Positions 1-27,749 of a DNA stretch of 64,000 nt are shown here, in pieces (the stretch's first letter is position 1; every line of letters begins with the position of its first letter). Below the pieces are notes generated by a model. It was not told where the DNA came from. It searched no databases and saw nothing but the letters and a program-made list of their open reading frames with translations. The DNA lies in the NCBI GenBank assembly GCA_029261855.1, contig JAJDAN010000021.1:15212-79211 (forward strand). Direction: 5' to 3'. Both the position numbers and the translations under genes were made by a program. Origin of the DNA: Deltaproteobacteria bacterium. GTDB taxonomy: Bacteria > Myxococcota_A > UBA9160 > UBA4427.

Positions 1-643
1 GGACGCCGATGATCGCGTCGGCCTCGAGTGGACTGCTGATCTCCTCGCGCAGGAATTCACCGAGCGTTCGGCCCCCGGGATCGACCCGGCGAAAGACCTC
101 GTTCACGATCCAGCCGCGGGTGATGGCGTGGTACTCCCTTCTGCCGCTCTCCCCTTTTCCATTCGGCTTCCGGAATCGCAGCGGATGGGCCTCGATCACC
201 TTTCCGATCCGGTTCTGCTTGATGTTCGGCGTGAGCAGGTCCTCGGGATCGAGGGAGGTGGTGAAGGCGGCCATGCCGCCCTCGTGGCGCATCAGTTCCG
301 CGACGGTGAGATCGGCCTTTCCATTCGCCGCGAATTCCGGCCAGTAGTCGACGATCTTCGCGTCATATTCGAGCAGGCCTCTCCCCACGAGAGCGGCCAT
401 CGCGATGGCCTCGAGGCTCTTGCCACTGCTGAAGATGTTGACGATGGAGTCTGGCGAGAATCGGGCGTCGTTCGTCGTCGAGGCCCAGAGATCGACCACT
501 CGCTCGCCCTTGTGGTAGACGCAGAGCTGGGTGTTCTCCTCCGCCATCGTCCGCATCTCGTGCTCGTACAGCTGCTTCACGGACTCGAAGCCGGGCGCCA
601 CTGTTCCCTGGACTCGAACCTGCTCTCCCGCACCACGGCCCAT
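1..643 (-). CDS. Serine hydrolase, beta-lactamase family (class C/EstB-like), 3' part outside the window
   Basis: Manual translation of the minus strand from ATG at 643: MGRGAGEQVRVQGTVAPGFESVKQLY...QLCVYHKGERVVDLW...NIFSSGKSL (SxxK)...DYWPEFAANGKADLTVAELMRHEGG. Absent from the ORF track because it runs off the window edge. Confidence 0.85.
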   Translation of the reverse strand, partial: MGRGAGEQVRVQGTVAPGFESVKQLYEHEMRTMAEENTQLCVYHKGERVVDLWASTTNDARFSPDSIVNIFSSGKSLEAIAMAALVGRGLLEYDAKIVDYWPEFAANGKADLTVAELMRHEGGMAAFTTSLDPEDLLTPNIKQNRIGKVIEAHPLRFRKPNGKGESGRREYHAITRGWIVNEVFRRVDPGGRTLGEFLREEISSPLEADAIIGV

Positions 644-783
644 CGCTTTCCCCGATTCAGATTGGAGGCCAAGCGTACCAGGATGAAGGCCGTTTCGAGG
701 GGTGGCCGACGGGCCCGGCCGTGTATGATCGAGACCATCTGAAACCAACCAAGACGGACCGGGACGGATCGAGGCGGGCAACC

Positions 784-1686
784 ATGAGCGTCAGCGACCA
801 GGGTGCGAAGCGAGGGGTCTACCGGCGTTTCGTCAGCTACATCGACCGGACGCGCGAGTACTACGCCGCGCAGGGCTACGAGCGGCCCTATTCCTGGGCC
901 CAGTTCGACGACGCCCCCTTCACGCCGCTCCCCGGGCCCCTCTCGGAGCTGCGCGTCGCGCTGGTCACGACGGCGAGCCCGGTGGGCAAGCAAACGGCGT
1001 CGGACGGCGTCCTGCGCGGCGGCAAGGAAGTGTGGTCCGGCAGCACCGACGACCCGCCCGAGGCGCTCTTCACCGACGACCTCGCCTGGGACAAGGAAGC
1101 GACGCACACCGACGACGTCGAATCATTCCTGCCGATCCGCAAGCTGAGCGATTTCGCTGAAGCCGGACGGATCGGCAGCCTGGCCCCGCGCTTTCACGGC
1201 GTCCCCACCGACTACAGCCAGCGTCGCACCATCGAGCTGGATGCCCCGGAGATCCTGCGACGCTGCCGCGAAGACGGCGTCGACGTGGCCTTGCTCGTCC
1301 CCTTGTGACCCGTCTGCCACCAGACCGTGAGTCTGGTCGCACGCCACCTGGAAGCCAACGGCATCGCCACCATCGTGATCGGCAGCGCCCGGGACATCGT
1401 CGAGGAGTGCGGCGTGGCGCGCTTCCTCTTCAGCGACTTCCCGCTCGGCAATCCCTGTGGTCGCCCCTACGAACCCGACATGCAACGAGAGATCGTCGGC
1501 TACGCGCTCGACGTCCTCTCGAACGCGACGCTGCCGCGGACGACCGTGCAGACGCCCTTCGTGTGGAGCGAAGACGACTCCTGGAAGCAGGGCTACGCAC
1601 GCGTCGACGCCGAGAGCGCCGAGAAACTCCGCAAGGCCGGTGAAGCCCGTCGTGCCCGTCAGGCGAAGGCGCGGCCGACGGACTAG
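784..1686 (+). CDS. Selenoprotein, glycine/sarcosine/betaine/D-proline reductase selenoprotein B-like; Sec at TGA 1306-1308 (UxxC)
   Basis: ORFs 721..1308 and 1327..1686 are in the same frame. Read-through gives DGVDVALLVPL-U-PVCHQTVSLVARHLEANGIATIVIG...DFPLGNPCG, the GrdB/PrdB-like signature. SECIS-like hairpin follows the TGA. Confidence 0.9.
1319..1337 (+). promoter_or_regulatory. Putative bacterial SECIS hairpin
   Basis: ACCAGAC-CGTGA-GTCTGGT stem-loop; loop starts 17 nt after the TGA and has G at position 2. Confidence 0.7.
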
Positions 1687-1828: not shown

Positions 1829-2584
1829 GTGGGTGATGTGGTCCTCGGTCTGGCTTCGCTGGTCGTCGTGGCGACCTCGATCGGTCTCTGGATCCGTGCA
1901 ACCAAGCGCCTGGAGATCCCGAAGAACCGGACCGGCTTCGTCGCGGCCTGGATCGTCGCAGCGAGCCTGGGCGTGGCGGCTCTCGCGGGCGAGCCGGGTT
2001 GGCTCGGAGGCATCGCGGCAGGTCTCGCCGTCTTCGCAACGGCCTTCCTGCTTCTGACCGTCGCGATCGGCGGCCAGAAGGTCGCGGGCAATGCCATCCG
2101 GGTGGGAAACACGATCCCCGCTTTCACGGCCAACGATGAACACGGGCAAGCCTTCGACTCGCAGAGCCTCGCCGGGCACCCGGTCCTCATCAAGTTCTTT
2201 CGCGGGCACTGGTGACCCTACTGTGTCGCCGAGTTGCGGCGATGGGAAGAACTGAGGCCCGAATTCGATGCGCGGGGTGTGAAGATCCTGACGGTCAGCA
2301 CCGACACCCCGGGTGAGCTCGCCAAGGGGCGTCGCAAGCACCACCTCGGCGCCACGATGCTCTCGGACCGCGAGCTGGCGGTGACCGACCGCTTCGGGCT
2401 GCGCAACCAGGGCATCCACTCCGGCCCGCCCCCGCCGATCGCCGCCAAGGCCCTGCCCGTCCCGACGTCCCTGCTGGTGGACGAGAACGGAAAGGTGCTG
2501 TGGATGGACCAGTCCGAGAACTATCAGCGGCGTTCGGACCCCGACTACGTCCTCGCGGCCCTGCGCGAGCACCTCGATTCATGA
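1829..2584 (+). CDS. Membrane-anchored AhpC/TSA (peroxiredoxin-like/redoxin) selenoprotein; Sec at TGA 2213-2215 (UxxC)
   Basis: GTG start after GAGGAG; about three N-terminal hydrophobic helices, then VGNTIPAFTANDEHG...PVLIKFFRGHW-U-PYCVAEL...PTSLLVDENGKVLW. ORFs 1457..2215 and 2234..2584 are in frame. Confidence 0.9.
2225..2243 (+). promoter_or_regulatory. Putative bacterial SECIS hairpin
   Basis: GTCGCCG-AGTTG-CGGCGAT stem-loop; loop starts 16 nt after the TGA and has G at position 2. Confidence 0.7.
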
Positions 2585-3267: not shown

Positions 3268-3345
3268 TTTCGTCGGCAGATGCGAGACGTCAGAAGCGAG
3301 ATGTCAGCAACGAGATCCATCTCAGCCAGGGGAGCACGAACGGCC

Positions 3346-4500
3346 ATGGGTTTTGACGAAGTCGCCGCCGCGATCGATTCGATCGCTCATCAGTGGCGTG
3401 CAGCGAGGCCCGAGCGTCAGCGCCGGCGTCACCTGGAGCGGGCCGACTTCGGCCTTCTCCGCGACGCAGGGTTGCTGCGGGTCGGAGCGCCAGAGGACCA
3501 GGGCGGACTCTGGCGCTCGCTCGAGGAGTCGGCCCGCCCGACCTGTTCGCTGTACCGGACGCTGGCCGCCGCCGACTCCTCGGTCGCGCTCGTCTCGTCC
3601 ATGCACCCGGCCGTCATCTCCCTCTGGCTCATCAGTCCCGACCCGGACCAACCCGAATGGGAGGATCAGCGCAAGGCCGTCTTCGCCAGCGCGGTGGACG
3701 GCGTCCAGTGGGGCACCATCACGTCGGAGCCCGGAAGTGGCGGCGACATTTCGAAGACGAAGGCAACAGCCACGCCGGCCGAAGGCGAGCCCTTCCTCTC
3801 GGGTGCCCTCTACACCCTGCGCGGCGACAAGCACTTCGGCAGCGGCTCGGGAGTCACGCAACGGATGATGACGACCGCGATCCCCGACGGAGAGGACGAG
3901 CCCACGGTGTTCGTCCTCGACTTCGACGGTCGCCCGTGGGACGGCACCAGCGGCCTCGAGCTGATCGCCGAGTGGGACGGGGCCGGCATGGCGGCCACCC
4001 AAAGCCATGCCATGCGACTCCGGGGCGCTCCGGCGGTGCGACTCGGCTTCGATGGCCCGCTCGTCCCGATCGCCGCGGCCGCGGCCCCGTTCAACGCGCT
4101 TCTGTTTACGGCGGTCGTGCTAGGTGTCCTCGACGAGGCAGTGGCGCTGGCTCGAGAGCGGATCGCCGTCCGCGCCGAATCGCTCCGGCCCTTCGAACAG
4201 GTGGAGTGGACCCTGGCGGAACGCGACCACTGGGTCTGCTGTCAGAGCTACGAGGGTGCCATGCGCGCCATCGAAGGAGGCGACCCCGCCGCCTCGCTCT
4301 ACGCCGCGATGAGAGCCAAGCACGCTGTTGCCGAGCTCGCCGAATCGACGATGTTGCGGCTGACGCGGGTGCTCGGCGGCGGAACCTTCTCGCTGAGCTC
4401 ACCTTTTTCGCGTTGGTTCGAGGACGTGCGGGCTCTCGGCTTCCTGCGCCCACCCTGGGCGCTTGCGCACGACACGCTCTTCGCGACGTCGCTCGAGTAG
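3346..4500 (+). CDS. Acyl-CoA dehydrogenase family protein (DszC/hydroxylase-like)
   Basis: Motifs ITSEPGSGGD, LRGDKHFGSG, WDGAGMAATQSH, LGGGTFS...SRWFEDVRALGF. Start uncertain (3280/3301/3346). Confidence 0.8.
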   Translation: MGFDEVAAAIDSIAHQWRAARPERQRRRHLERADFGLLRDAGLLRVGAPEDQGGLWRSLEESARPTCSLYRTLAAADSSVALVSSMHPAVISLWLISPDPDQPEWEDQRKAVFASAVDGVQWGTITSEPGSGGDISKTKATATPAEGEPFLSGALYTLRGDKHFGSGSGVTQRMMTTAIPDGEDEPTVFVLDFDGRPWDGTSGLELIAEWDGAGMAATQSHAMRLRGAPAVRLGFDGPLVPIAAAAAPFNALLFTAVVLGVLDEAVALARERIAVRAESLRPFEQVEWTLAERDHWVCCQSYEGAMRAIEGGDPAASLYAAMRAKHAVAELAESTMLRLTRVLGGGTFSLSSPFSRWFEDVRALGFLRPPWALAHDTLFATSLE

Positions 4501-4539
4501 AGCGCGTACCCCTGCAGCGCCTGTACAAGGAGTCCCCCA

Positions 4540-5598
4540 ATGCCCCGACCCACGACCATGCGCGCGTGGCGCGTCCACGAGTACGGCGAACCCGAAGACG
4601 TTCTCCAGATCGACGAAGTCCCGGTTCCCGAACCCGGCCCCGGGGAACTGCTCGTTCGCGTCCAGGCGATCCCCCTCAACCTGAACGACATGGAGCGAAT
4701 CACGGGCAAGAACATGATGGTCCGCCCGCCGCTCCCGACGATTCCCGGGATGGAAGTGATGGGAATCGTGGAAGCGTGCGGAGAGGGAACGAGCGATCGG
4801 TTGGGCGAACGCGTCGTCGCGATGCCGGCCCGGGCCTTCGGCGGCTTTGCGGAGTACGCCGTGTGCCCCAGCGTATCCGCGTTCGAGATGGCCGCAGAGA
4901 TACCGCTTCCCGATGCGGCAGCGCTGTACTTCCCCTTCCATCTCGCCTGGCTCGGGCTCTTCGACCGCGCGGATCTTGGCAGTGGTGAAACCGTCTTGAT
5001 CCATGCCGCCGCGGGAGGGTCCGGGTCCGCCGCGATCCAGCTCGCAAAGAACGTGGGCGCACGCGTCTTCGCAACGGCCAGCTCGGAGGCGAAGCTCGAT
5101 CTCTGTCGAGAGCTGGGGGCCGATGTCGCGATCAACTACGCCGAGTCGAACTTCGCCGACATCGTCCTGGACGAAACCGACGGCAAGGGTGTGGATGTCG
5201 TCTTCGACAACGTCGGGGAAGCCGTGATGGCGGATTCCATGAAGTGCATCGCATACAACGGCCGCTACCTCATGATGGGCTTCGCCTCGGACAAGAGCGT
5301 GGTCGATGAGAAGTTCGTCGTTCCCCGCGCTCTCGCCGTGGGCAACTTCCGGCTCTGCGGCGCAATGCTGGCTTACGTCGACGAAAACACGTCCAAGGCG
5401 ATGAAGCGGGGCCCCGGGTGGAACTTCGTCCCCGAAGCCTCGGGACAGCGATTCATGCGAGAGATCAACGACCTCGTGCTCGCGAAACGCATCAAGCCAG
5501 TCATCGGCAGCGTCGTCGACTTCGCGGAACTTCCGGGCGCGATCGCCGCCCTCGCGAACCGCAAGACGACCGGGCGGACGATCGTGAGGCTCTGGTAG
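4540..5598 (+). CDS. NADPH:quinone oxidoreductase (MDR/zeta-crystallin family)
   Basis: PEPGPGELLVRV, IPGMEVMG, VLIHAAAGGSGSAAIQLAK, GVDVVFDNVG. Confidence 0.9.
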   Translation: MPRPTTMRAWRVHEYGEPEDVLQIDEVPVPEPGPGELLVRVQAIPLNLNDMERITGKNMMVRPPLPTIPGMEVMGIVEACGEGTSDRLGERVVAMPARAFGGFAEYAVCPSVSAFEMAAEIPLPDAAALYFPFHLAWLGLFDRADLGSGETVLIHAAAGGSGSAAIQLAKNVGARVFATASSEAKLDLCRELGADVAINYAESNFADIVLDETDGKGVDVVFDNVGEAVMADSMKCIAYNGRYLMMGFASDKSVVDEKFVVPRALAVGNFRLCGAMLAYVDENTSKAMKRGPGWNFVPEASGQRFMREINDLVLAKRIKPVIGSVVDFAELPGAIAALANRKTTGRTIVRLW

Positions 5599-5663
5599 GC
5601 TGTAGTCTACGCCGAGTTCGAAGCCGCACTTCTCCCCTTTTGAGTCACTCGCAGAGGCTACCC

Positions 5664-7415
5664 GTGCACGACTTGATCATTCGCGGCGGCACCCTGATCG
5701 ACGGAACGGGTGCGCCGGCCCGCCAGGCTGACGTCGCCATTGCGGGCGGCCTCGTCGTCGCTGTTGGGCAGGATCTCGGAAGTGGCCGCGAAGAGATCGA
5801 CGCGAGCGGGCTGATCGTCACACCCGGTTGGGTCGATATCCATACCCACTACGACGGCCAGGCCACCTGGGACGCCCACCTGACCCCCGCGCCGTGGAAT
5901 GGCGTCACGACAGTGGTCATGGGCAACTGCGGAGTCGGCTTCGCTCCCGTCAAGCCGGATCAACACGCCTTCCTGATCCAGCTCATGGAAGGGGTAGAGG
6001 ACATCCCCGGAAGCGCGCTCACCGAAGGCATCCAGTGGCAGTGGGAGACCTTCCCCGAGTTCCTCGATGCCTTGGAGGCGCGGCAGTTCGCGATCGATGT
6101 CGGCACCCAGGTCCCCCACGGCGCCGTCCGCGCCTACGTGATGGGTGATGCGGGCGCCAAGAACGAGGAAGCCAGCCCGGAAGACATTGCCGCAATGGCG
6201 GCAATCGCCAGAGAGGGTCTCGAAGCCGGGGCTCTCGGCATTTCCACCTCGCGGACGAAACTGCACAAGGCGAAGGACGGCGAGTTCGTGCCGGGCACCC
6301 ACGCTGCCTTCGACGAGGTACTGGGGATCGGGAGAATGCTGGGCGAGGTGGGACACGGCGTCTTCCAGCTGGCGGGCGACTACCTGCCGGAAGACACCGA
6401 GCTCGGCTGGATGAAGCAACTCAGCCGCGAAACTGGCAAGCGCGTCTTGTACAGCATGGTGCAAAGCGGTGGCGACCCGGACCAATGGCGACGATTGCTA
6501 CGGGCCTCCGAAGTCGATCGAGCCGAAGGAGGATTGCTGACCCCTCAGATCGCCCCGCGCCCGGCCGGTCTGCTCCTCGGCTTCGAGAGCAGCGTGCATC
6601 CCTTCCTCCTGCACGCGAACTTCTGGCCCCTGCTCAAGCTGTCCGTGGAGGAGAGGCGAGCAGCGTTGGCCACCCCGGAAACGAGGGCGTTGGTACTCAG
6701 CAAGCCCCCCGACTACAGCCAATTGAGCGGAGTCGTGGCGATGGTCATGCACGGTTTCGATCAGATGTTCGTGCTCGGCGAAGAACCCGACTACGAGCCG
6801 GCAGCAGAGCAGAGCATCGCTGCCATCGCGGAAAGGGAAGGCCGAACGCCCCAGGAGGTGGCGTACGACGTCATGGCTTCGGAGGGCGGCGACGGACTGA
6901 TCTTCCTGCCGATGCTGGGCTACGTCGACCGGGACCTCAACGCGACGGCGGAAATGATGCGCCACCCCAACAGCATCTACGGCCTGGCGGATGGCGGCGC
7001 GCACTGCGGCATGATCAGCGATGCCAGCATCCCCACCTTTCTGCTGACCCACTGGGCCCGGGACCGGACCCGTGGCGAGCGAATCCCCATCGAAGAGCTC
7101 GTGGAAAATCAGACCAGCCGGACCGCGAAGTGTTATGGCCTGGATGATCGCGGCGTGATTGCACCCGGCATGAAGGCGGACATCAACGTCATCGATTTCG
7201 ACAACCTGCGCATCCACGCCCCGAAGATCGCCTATGACCTACCCGCCGGTGGCAAGCGCTTCCTGCAGCAGATCACGGGCTATCACAGCACGATCTGCAG
7301 TGGCGAAGTGATCTATCGCCACGGGAAAGCGACTGGGAAACTCCCGGGCCGACTCATCCGGGGCCCCCAGTCCGCCCCCCGCGCCTCGGTCGAACCCGAG
7401 ATCGCCGGAAGATGA
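5664..7415 (+). CDS. N-acyl-D-amino-acid deacylase family amidohydrolase
   Basis: GTG start; DLIIRGGTLIDGTG, PGWVDIHTHYDGQ, VVMGNCGVGFAP, DGGAHCG, DRGVIAPGMKADINVID. Confidence 0.9.
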   Translation: MHDLIIRGGTLIDGTGAPARQADVAIAGGLVVAVGQDLGSGREEIDASGLIVTPGWVDIHTHYDGQATWDAHLTPAPWNGVTTVVMGNCGVGFAPVKPDQHAFLIQLMEGVEDIPGSALTEGIQWQWETFPEFLDALEARQFAIDVGTQVPHGAVRAYVMGDAGAKNEEASPEDIAAMAAIAREGLEAGALGISTSRTKLHKAKDGEFVPGTHAAFDEVLGIGRMLGEVGHGVFQLAGDYLPEDTELGWMKQLSRETGKRVLYSMVQSGGDPDQWRRLLRASEVDRAEGGLLTPQIAPRPAGLLLGFESSVHPFLLHANFWPLLKLSVEERRAALATPETRALVLSKPPDYSQLSGVVAMVMHGFDQMFVLGEEPDYEPAAEQSIAAIAEREGRTPQEVAYDVMASEGGDGLIFLPMLGYVDRDLNATAEMMRHPNSIYGLADGGAHCGMISDASIPTFLLTHWARDRTRGERIPIEELVENQTSRTAKCYGLDDRGVIAPGMKADINVIDFDNLRIHAPKIAYDLPAGGKRFLQQITGYHSTICSGEVIYRHGKATGKLPGRLIRGPQSAPRASVEPEIAGR

Positions 7416-27383: not shown

Positions 27384-27749
27384 TGGTGGAGGCGGCGGGA
27401 ATCGAACCCGCGTCCGCATAGCTTCTAGAACACGCGTCTACGTGCGTAGACTTCGATCAATTTCGGGCGCCGCGATCTCGAAGTCGGGAGTACGGAACCC
27501 TATACAGACATCGGTCTCGCCTCCCACGTGCGGCCTGTCAGCGCCGGGGAGACCAGCCTCCTGATGACACCCGCAACCCGCTAGAAGGCGTCGCGGACGG
27601 GTGTCGCTAACTTAGTTTCAGCTAAGCAGCGAGTGCGTAGTTGTCGTCGGCAGTTATGTCTACCAACTTGTCGCCTGATTAACGACGGTACGACGACGTC
27701 GGCACGCAGCGTGAACCTTCGACTACCCGTCGAAATCCAATTCGCCCCC
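27384..27749 (-). ncRNA. ssrA: tmRNA; tag peptide ADDNYALAA* at 27651-27622
   Basis: 5' GGGGGCGAATTGGATTTCGAC; 3' GACGCGGGTTCGATTCCCGCCGCCTCCACCA; acceptor stem with G3-U pair; internal GCC GAC GAC AAC TAC GCA CTC GCT GCT TAG. Confidence 0.97.

Follow-up and report, generated by a model that had tools for sequence, protein, structure and literature searches.

Selenoproteins named after PrdB of D-proline reductase, with a U-x-x-C motif in which U is selenocysteine (Sec), are recorded among the most abundant selenoprotein families in the relevant passages of two marine surveys. The Sargasso Sea selenoproteome lists 42 Sec genes of the 'PrdB' family (Zhang, Fomenko & Gladyshev, 2005; PMC1088965) and the Global Ocean Sampling (GOS) selenoproteome 235 Sec versus 110 Cys forms (Zhang & Gladyshev, 2008; PMC2398784). 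These passages treat the family as a proline reductase, and the missing pyruvoyl subunit PrdA is not discussed there. The sections on PrdB in reviews from 2022 and 2026 describe it only as a clostridial enzyme, and no work on the function of the stand-alone family turned up in the open-access literature searched. Here we describe a stand-alone PrdB-like selenoprotein gene at positions 784 to 1686 (forward strand) of a DNA stretch of 64,000 nucleotides from Deltaproteobacteria bacterium (assembly GCA_029261855.1, contig JAJDAN010000021.1), the whole of which is referred to as the window. The supplementary lists of both surveys include entries of the form LLVPL-U-PVCHQT...ARHLE...DFPLGNP.G that match the window sequence, and the gene therefore belongs to the catalogued family. 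The family itself is not new, having been catalogued as a selenoprotein since 2005; the window gene is a new member of it, and its correction is an annotation fix.

The gene and its predicted recoding signals are organized as follows.

784..1686, forward strand: stand-alone PrdB-like selenoprotein gene (ATG at 784-786, Sec codon 175, stop TAG at 1684-1686; 300 residues)

784..1305, forward strand: N-terminal part of 174 codons, called as a separate truncated protein by gene callers

1306..1308, forward strand: UGA predicted to be read as Sec (U175), in the motif U-P-V-C-H-Q-T, as indicated by the Cys/TGA column, the alignment with the Sec of GrdB and the Sec machinery

1309..1686, forward strand: C-terminal part past the Sec codon, with Cys178 (putatively resolving), His179 and a DFPLGNPCG motif with Cys225

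1319..1337, forward strand: predicted hairpin of the selenocysteine insertion sequence (SECIS) type, with a 7-bp stem (1319-1325/1331-1337, ACCAGAC/GUCUGGU) and the loop CGUGA (1326-1330)

1315-1317/1339-1341, forward strand: weaker lower stem, paired in only 34-65 of the 76 Sec forms compared below

The frame from 784 to 1686 holds 300 codons, and its read-through translation is interrupted solely by the TGA at 1306-1308. Around this codon the protein reads ...ALLVPL-U-PVCHQTVSLVARHLE..., and over a longer stretch ...DVALLVPL-U-PVCHQTVSLVARHLEANG..., which bears out the sequence-only reading of the locus, namely that two open reading frames (ORFs) in the same frame are split by one TGA at the U of LVPL-U-PVCHQ. 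In the protein database the window's own product is a protein of 174 residues (P0005; 100% identity, 58% coverage), a stump that exists because gene callers stop at the TGA. Metagenome contigs from two runs of one study carry identical letters over 700-1329 and 700-1335. Since the same letters are found in independent contigs, the TGA is not an error private to the source assembly, with the reservation that the two runs may be the sample from which the source genome was assembled. The summed contig depth in these runs rises about 10-fold in the bin 1303-1369 and nowhere else around the gene's Sec site, because contigs of other organisms in these samples share just that stretch, with three to four differences over ~45 nt. 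A promoter scan around the gene returned 0 sites, and the terminator-like site at 1676-1693 is weak (5 bp). We conclude that the two ORFs are one gene, the internal UGA of which is predicted to encode Sec.

A search of a protein collection scored 8000 candidates, at least 6060 of them at E <= 1e-3. The best 120 homologues are mostly 281-311 aa long (~291 aa) and share 56-65% identity with the query over 90-96% of its length. Many come from Bradyrhizobium, and several carry the source names 'glycine reductase' or 'D-proline reductase (dithiol) PrdB'. When the read-through product was aligned with 19 of these 120 proteins, the TGA column was found to hold Cys in 19/19, within P-L-C-P-V-C-H-Q-T, in proteins that are each a single chain. 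About 85 further columns are invariant in this alignment, including C178, H179, Q180, T181 and D218-G226. In a protein atlas, a natural Cys homologue led to nothing but the 'glycine reductase family' clusters to which it belongs.

At the level of genomic loci, a scan of one genome per species gave at least 600 matching stretches, at least 574 of which encode relatives; the locus counts out of 80 given here rest on the best 80 of these relatives (56-82% identity, several phyla). The codon at the Sec column is TGA in 75 of the 80 loci and TGT or TGC in the other five, which come from Bradyrhizobium, other Alphaproteobacteria and Stellaceae. The Sec-form loci are labeled as Myxococcota (the closest of the best 80), Thermodesulfobacteriota/Syntrophales, Chloroflexota, Binatia, Burkholderiales, Thermoanaerobaculia and Reyranella. 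In a sample of the phylum, a match at E <= 1e-30 was obtained in 20 of 201 genomes, all of one class, with TGA in 32 of the 33 matched places; the exception is a fragment that spans only residues 12-114.

The source genome (6.96 Mb, 91 contigs, 98.6% complete) was searched for the genes selA, selB, selC and selD, and all were found above the curated cut-offs: selA with 517 bits, selB with 273 bits, selD with 338 bits and tRNA-Sec with 66 bits (ARAGORN: tRNA-SeC, anticodon tca). The selD gene (contig C24:63971-64897; locus L010) has a single in-frame TGA of its own, and judged from this codon the SelD of the source genome is probably itself a selenoprotein.

The 75 Sec-form loci and the window were compared in codon register as a set of 76 sequences, 75 of them distinct. 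The sequence-only reading had described a SECIS-like hairpin with a loop beginning 17 nt past the TGA, and the predicted fold, which gives the same distance of 17 nt, and its conservation in the 76 Sec forms both agree with this description. The codons in the hairpin are near-frozen, with CAC (His) in 68/76, CAG (Gln) in 74/76, ACC (Thr) in 76/76, GTG (Val) in 74/76, AGT (Ser) in 73/73 and CTG (Leu) in 74/76 sequences, the frozen block comprising codons +5 to +9. Codon entropy is 0-0.5 bit in the hairpin versus 1.4-2.4 bits at flanking four- and six-fold codons for equally conserved amino acids, and the Ser codon AGT is unusual for GC-rich genomes. Each of the seven stem pairs is formed in 69-76 of the 76 Sec forms. 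Counting the U of UGA as position 1, two-sided changes are seen at pair 15-31 (CG 66, UG 5, UA 3, CA 2) and at pair 18-28 (GC 74, AU 1, AC 1). The apical loop is CGUGA in 71 of the 76, and its G and U occupy positions 22-23, which we take to correspond roughly to the essential G23 and U24 of the fdhF SECIS. Among the five Cys forms, AGC replaces AGT and the hairpin is lost in four, and it is retained in the fifth. This fifth locus (L082, ~6451-6495, from a metagenome-assembled genome of Bradyrhizobium) combines a Cys codon (TGT) with the Sec-form hairpin sequence CACCAGACCGTGAGTCTGGT, and these letters suggest that Sec was exchanged for Cys recently and the SECIS left behind. By this comparison of sequences, the predicted hairpin is real and is held by selection at synonymous sites.

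The best NCBIfam match of the read-through product is the PrdB equivalog TIGR04483 (E 1.1e-25, 90.4 bits; residues 45-260 against positions 19-233 of a model of 238), followed by GrdH, GrdF, TIGR01918 (25.3 bits, cut-off 65.45) and GrdB. The TIGR04483 cut-off of 300 bits is not reached, nor is the gathering score of 22 of the Pfam family GRDB (PF07355; 10.8 bits, E 0.29), and all curated membership thresholds for the PrdB and GrdB families were failed. For a direct comparison we used a canonical GrdB (436 aa), read through its TGA, from genome G201, the genome of locus L067, which also served as positive control for the partner searches. With hhalign, residues 110-247 align to residues 284-425 of this GrdB (probability 91.6%, E 8.4e-7); U175 is aligned to its Sec349, and Cys178 to a GrdB Cys that lies three residues further on, in a longer U-GTSTR-C loop. 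The TIGR04483 match and the Sec-to-Sec alignment with GrdB uphold the earlier description of the product as a GrdB/PrdB-like UxxC protein, and by these profile alignments it is a true but distant homologue of the Sec-bearing C-terminal part of protein B/PrdB.

No partner subunits had been noted in the window by the sequence-only reading, and profile searches extend this to the whole genome for GrdE/PrdA and GrdA. In the 98.6% complete source genome, PF09338 (the pyruvoyl proprotein GrdE/PrdA) and PF04723 (GrdA) are both without a match, so that neither prdA nor grdA was found by these models. In the window's class, where at least 20 genomes carry stand-alone PrdB-like genes, 61 sampled genomes gave no match to PF09338, nor did four other carriers of the stand-alone gene. 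The built-in controls of the searches were silent; the positive control G201 gave PF09338 twice (5e-98 and 2e-79) and PF04723 once (7e-58, with its TGA), and also holds two full GrdB genes. This Syntrophorhabdales-labeled genome (contigs C63, C173, and C146) encodes a stand-alone PrdB-like selenoprotein as well as canonical grdE-grdB pairs and grdA on other contigs. The stand-alone and the canonical systems thus coexist and are not alternatives.

The surroundings of the gene are equally devoid of a constant partner. When six window neighbours were compared by tblastn with the 80 loci, only a zinc-alcohol dehydrogenase (ADH)-type oxidoreductase recurred (4/80), and clustering of 2403 ORFs within 4.5 kb gave non-self clusters that span at most nine of the 80 loci. 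Pfam domains on 145 flanking ORFs of these loci are mixed, with short-chain dehydrogenase/reductase (SDR; 5), acyl-CoA dehydrogenase (4), glutathione S-transferase (GST; 2), glyoxalase, luciferase-like, TetR and AlgH-like domains (3 each), Lon/Ku and others; Stickland components and thioredoxin reductase were not among them. The PrdB-like gene has no conserved gene neighbour. Given that PrdA/GrdE is missing from genome and class and GrdA from the genome, and that no neighbour is conserved, the protein cannot serve in the manner of a D-proline or glycine reductase complex. We assign a probability of about 0.8 to the reading that the gene encodes a PrdB-like selenoprotein and is an orphan.

By the established bacterial route of Sec decoding, a complex of SelB and Sec-tRNA(Sec) would bind the mRNA hairpin at 1319-1337, Sec would be inserted at codon 175, and the product would be a soluble protein of 300 residues. 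The selenolate of Sec175 may then attack an electrophilic atom of a small bound substrate, held by a conserved polar pocket (WDKExTHTxD, GVPTEYSQRKT, and DFPLGNPCG), after which Cys178 would resolve the adduct into an intramolecular Se-S bond and a thioredoxin- or glutaredoxin-type reductant would re-reduce this bond. The logic of such a half-reaction would be that of Stickland protein B/PrdB, minus the Schiff-base (pyruvoyl) partner. The protein B/PrdB chemistry as outlined in sections of two papers is the model for these steps (PMC13188914, PMC10838667), and the latter also contains pyruvoyl-independent precedents in the superfamily, betaine GrdI and fluoroacetate FarB/FarE. With no Schiff-base partner, substrates would not have to be primary or secondary amines. 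The sequence-only reading had suggested that the protein may act in a different, uncharacterised reductive reaction, which is a reasonable surmise. By analogy with these enzymes, we tentatively propose, at somewhat less than even odds, that the protein acts alone as a substrate-specific reductase by selenolate attack and Cys178 resolution. A wider generalization is possible but doubtful, namely that stand-alone PrdB-like proteins belong to no complex and are single-chain selenoenzymes for the pyruvoyl-independent reductive cleavage of a small molecule, found in many non-Stickland bacteria and diversified into several lineages of their own, three members of which the source genome encodes.

Gene callers split the frame (P0005), as would be expected if the TGA were a real stop resulting from a pseudogene, a sequencing error or two separate genes. 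This explanation is scarcely credible, since 75 of 80 species-level genomes, drawn from several phyla, share the TGA at this column and keep the downstream frame intact and conserved, the synonymous sites of the hairpin are under selection, the same letters occur in independent contigs, and the C-terminal part continues the single chain of the homologues and has no start-codon conservation. The gene could also encode a genuine D-proline reductase PrdB (or protein B of glycine, sarcosine or betaine reductase) with its partners encoded elsewhere. TIGR04483 as the best curated match (E 1.1e-25), followed by the GrdH, GrdF and GrdB models, speaks for it, as do the survey passages and several source annotations that read 'proline reductase PrdB' or 'glycine reductase'. 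However, 90.4 bits falls far short of the 300 bits that the equivalog requires, the thresholds of TIGR01918 and Pfam GRDB are missed too, PF09338 and PF04723 are not found in the nearly complete genome (98.6%) nor PF09338 in any of the 61 genomes of the class, with a positive G201 control, and Stickland components occur in 0 of the 145 flanking ORFs in 80 loci. The genuine D-proline reductase reading is largely refuted by this absence of partners, and we consider it very improbable.

The main rival to the proposed mechanism is a different role, that of a general thiol/selenol redox protein that serves as disulfide or peroxide reductase, or as a relay with neighbouring thioredoxin-fold selenoproteins, and performs no carbon-heteroatom cleavage. 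In favour of it, U-x-x-C motifs are characteristic of redox proteins, the adjoining gene specifies an AhpC/TSA protein that is membrane-anchored and likewise has a U-x-x-C, and GST, glyoxalase and flavin reductase genes flank some loci. Nevertheless we regard this role as unlikely, because the modeled fold is clearly not thioredoxin-like, the ~85 invariant columns across the whole protein are far above the need of a simple redox carrier, a peroxiredoxin-like neighbour is present in 0 of 80 related loci, a sister lineage has Sec but lacks the Cys, and the protein is homologous to substrate-cleaving enzymes.

Several results weigh against the reading of the gene as a stand-alone Sec-dependent reductase. 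The mechanistic chemistry, drawn by analogy alone, is far less certain than the identity of the protein and its orphan status. In a sister lineage of the source genome Sec is kept and Asp replaces Cys178, so the Se-S resolving step cannot be general across the superfamily. The absence of partners was determined with Pfam models, which a very divergent partner would escape. The folding energy of the hairpin is not above chance (z = -0.67; 53 of 200 shuffles fold equally well or better), and an Rfam scan of the whole window at gathering thresholds matched no family at the Sec site; in such GC-rich DNA this folding energy is unremarkable, and the hairpin was therefore judged by sequence comparison. 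The AlphaFold2 model, built from a 20-sequence alignment, is middling, with a predicted local distance difference test (pLDDT) score of 68 and a predicted template modeling (pTM) score of 0.75, and residues 65-111 are disordered with values below 50. Foldseek gave no match in the PDB at E <= 1e-3, and in sequence searches of the PDB neither the protein nor its profile obtained a match below E 0.4. A wide search with VIA-align reached a best Z of 9.8, with generic Rossmann-like alpha/beta folds of the LacI/periplasmic-binding-protein and SDR-like types; this value barely exceeds the usual background and offers no functional lead. With a middling model and generic fold matches, the putative substrate pocket was deduced from conservation and not seen.

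Besides the window gene, the source genome has two PrdB-like genes, which contain one TGA apiece and bring the total to three. The first paralogue (contig C39:16130-16915; locus L023, 1501-2286) shares 35% identity with the window protein and has its TGA in VPA-U-PLDHQT, where Asp replaces the resolving Cys; it carries NFPMGNPFG versus DFPLGNPCG in the window protein. The U-PLDHQT center is kept in all 12 examined loci of its lineage, the copy of the source genome included, and sequences of this type appear under 'PrdB' in the supplementary lists of the 2005 (PMC1088965) and 2008 (PMC2398784) surveys. The presence of Sec where no Cys can pair with it speaks for a nucleophile role over that of a simple redox pair. 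The other paralogue (contig C84:44561-45214; locus L024, 1396-2199) has 30% identity, its single TGA lies in LLVPS-U-PVCHQT, and it lacks the GNPCG motif; a sulfatase-like ORF in the same frame run lies immediately upstream of it. Nine loci from other genomes of the class (L121-L128 and L131), with one TGA each, represent a further lineage that has VPV/VPA-U-PVCHQS-VGLIAR.

Within the window, a scan for read-through frames of the U-x-x-C type, which is noisy in GC-rich DNA, gave only the TGAs at 1306 and 2213 as credible. The latter (2213-2215) lies in the gene that follows the PrdB-like gene (~1829-2584, forward strand; the start, GTG at 1829 or 1838, is uncertain), in FFRGHW-U-PYC. The encoded protein has an AhpC/TSA (Redoxin) domain (Pfam E 5.7e-26), preceded by about three N-terminal hydrophobic helices, and a local hairpin (UCGCCG-AGUUG-CGGCGA) begins 13 nt past the UGA. 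The contig depth of other organisms spikes at 2174-2240 in this gene. We consider it a candidate for a second selenoprotein; a homologue of it stands beside the PrdB-like gene in 0 of the 80 related loci. The other neighbours of the PrdB-like gene are the following.

2-781, reverse strand: beta-lactamase-family esterase, the divergent upstream neighbour

Within 3280-7415, forward strand: acyl-CoA-dehydrogenase-like protein (weak Pfam scores), zinc-ADH/quinone oxidoreductase and Amidohydro_3 protein

Farther along, a transfer-messenger RNA (tmRNA) gene at 27384-27749 on the reverse strand, with the tag peptide ADDNYALAA, is the sole Rfam match in the window.

The analysis replaces two truncated 'hypothetical' ORFs by one selenoprotein, and the same fix applies to the adjoining gene and to the two paralogues in the genome. 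It also draws attention to an abundant family that is named after D-proline reductase, an enzyme whose indispensable pyruvoyl subunit none of the 61 genomes sampled from the class was found to encode, and that has no conserved gene partner. If the single-chain reading were true, the 'proline reductase' label of a selenoprotein family abundant in the ocean would be a misnomer, and there would be a new selenium-dependent reaction to discover. The Cys forms in Bradyrhizobium records (names as given by the source) make genetics and biochemistry feasible.

Among the described systems, the proposed fluoroacetate reductase FarB/FarE of Synergistota is relevant to the window gene in showing that the superfamily has been recruited beyond amino-acid substrates, and the paper's section on FarB proposes that Sec attacks a polar C-X bond directly, with no Schiff base involved (PMC10838667). 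FarB is nevertheless a GrdB-type protein of full length, and its operon as described there also holds a GrdE-like partner, a radical SAM enzyme and a transporter, whereas the window gene stands alone (PMC10838667). The GrdB, GrdF and GrdH proteins (PF07355, TIGR01918) are similar over the C-terminal third of GrdB (284-425 of 436 aa), which aligns Sec on Sec. The window protein differs from them in lacking the N-terminal GrdB domain of ~280 residues (300 versus ~435 aa) and in its U-P-V-C motif versus U-G-T-S-T-R-C in the G201 example, and the partners GrdA, GrdE and GrdC/D have no counterpart for the window gene. The clostridial D-proline reductase PrdB (TIGR04483) is closer, with homology over residues 45-260, a similar size and Sec in U-x-x-C, and the Sec-to-Cys resolving chemistry outlined for it is presumably similar (PMC13188914). 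Unlike clostridial PrdB, the window gene scores 90 bits versus 300, has no PrdA in its genome or class and no prd operon context, and its family extends to lineages that are not known to carry out Stickland fermentation. The 'PrdB' family of the marine surveys (PMC1088965, PMC2398784) shares with it the Sec motif and its flanks, the size, the place of the hairpin and the Cys homologues at the Sec column, as far as the survey sections and lists describe them. Nothing essential separates the two; the window copy comes from a soil/biofilm-type genome.

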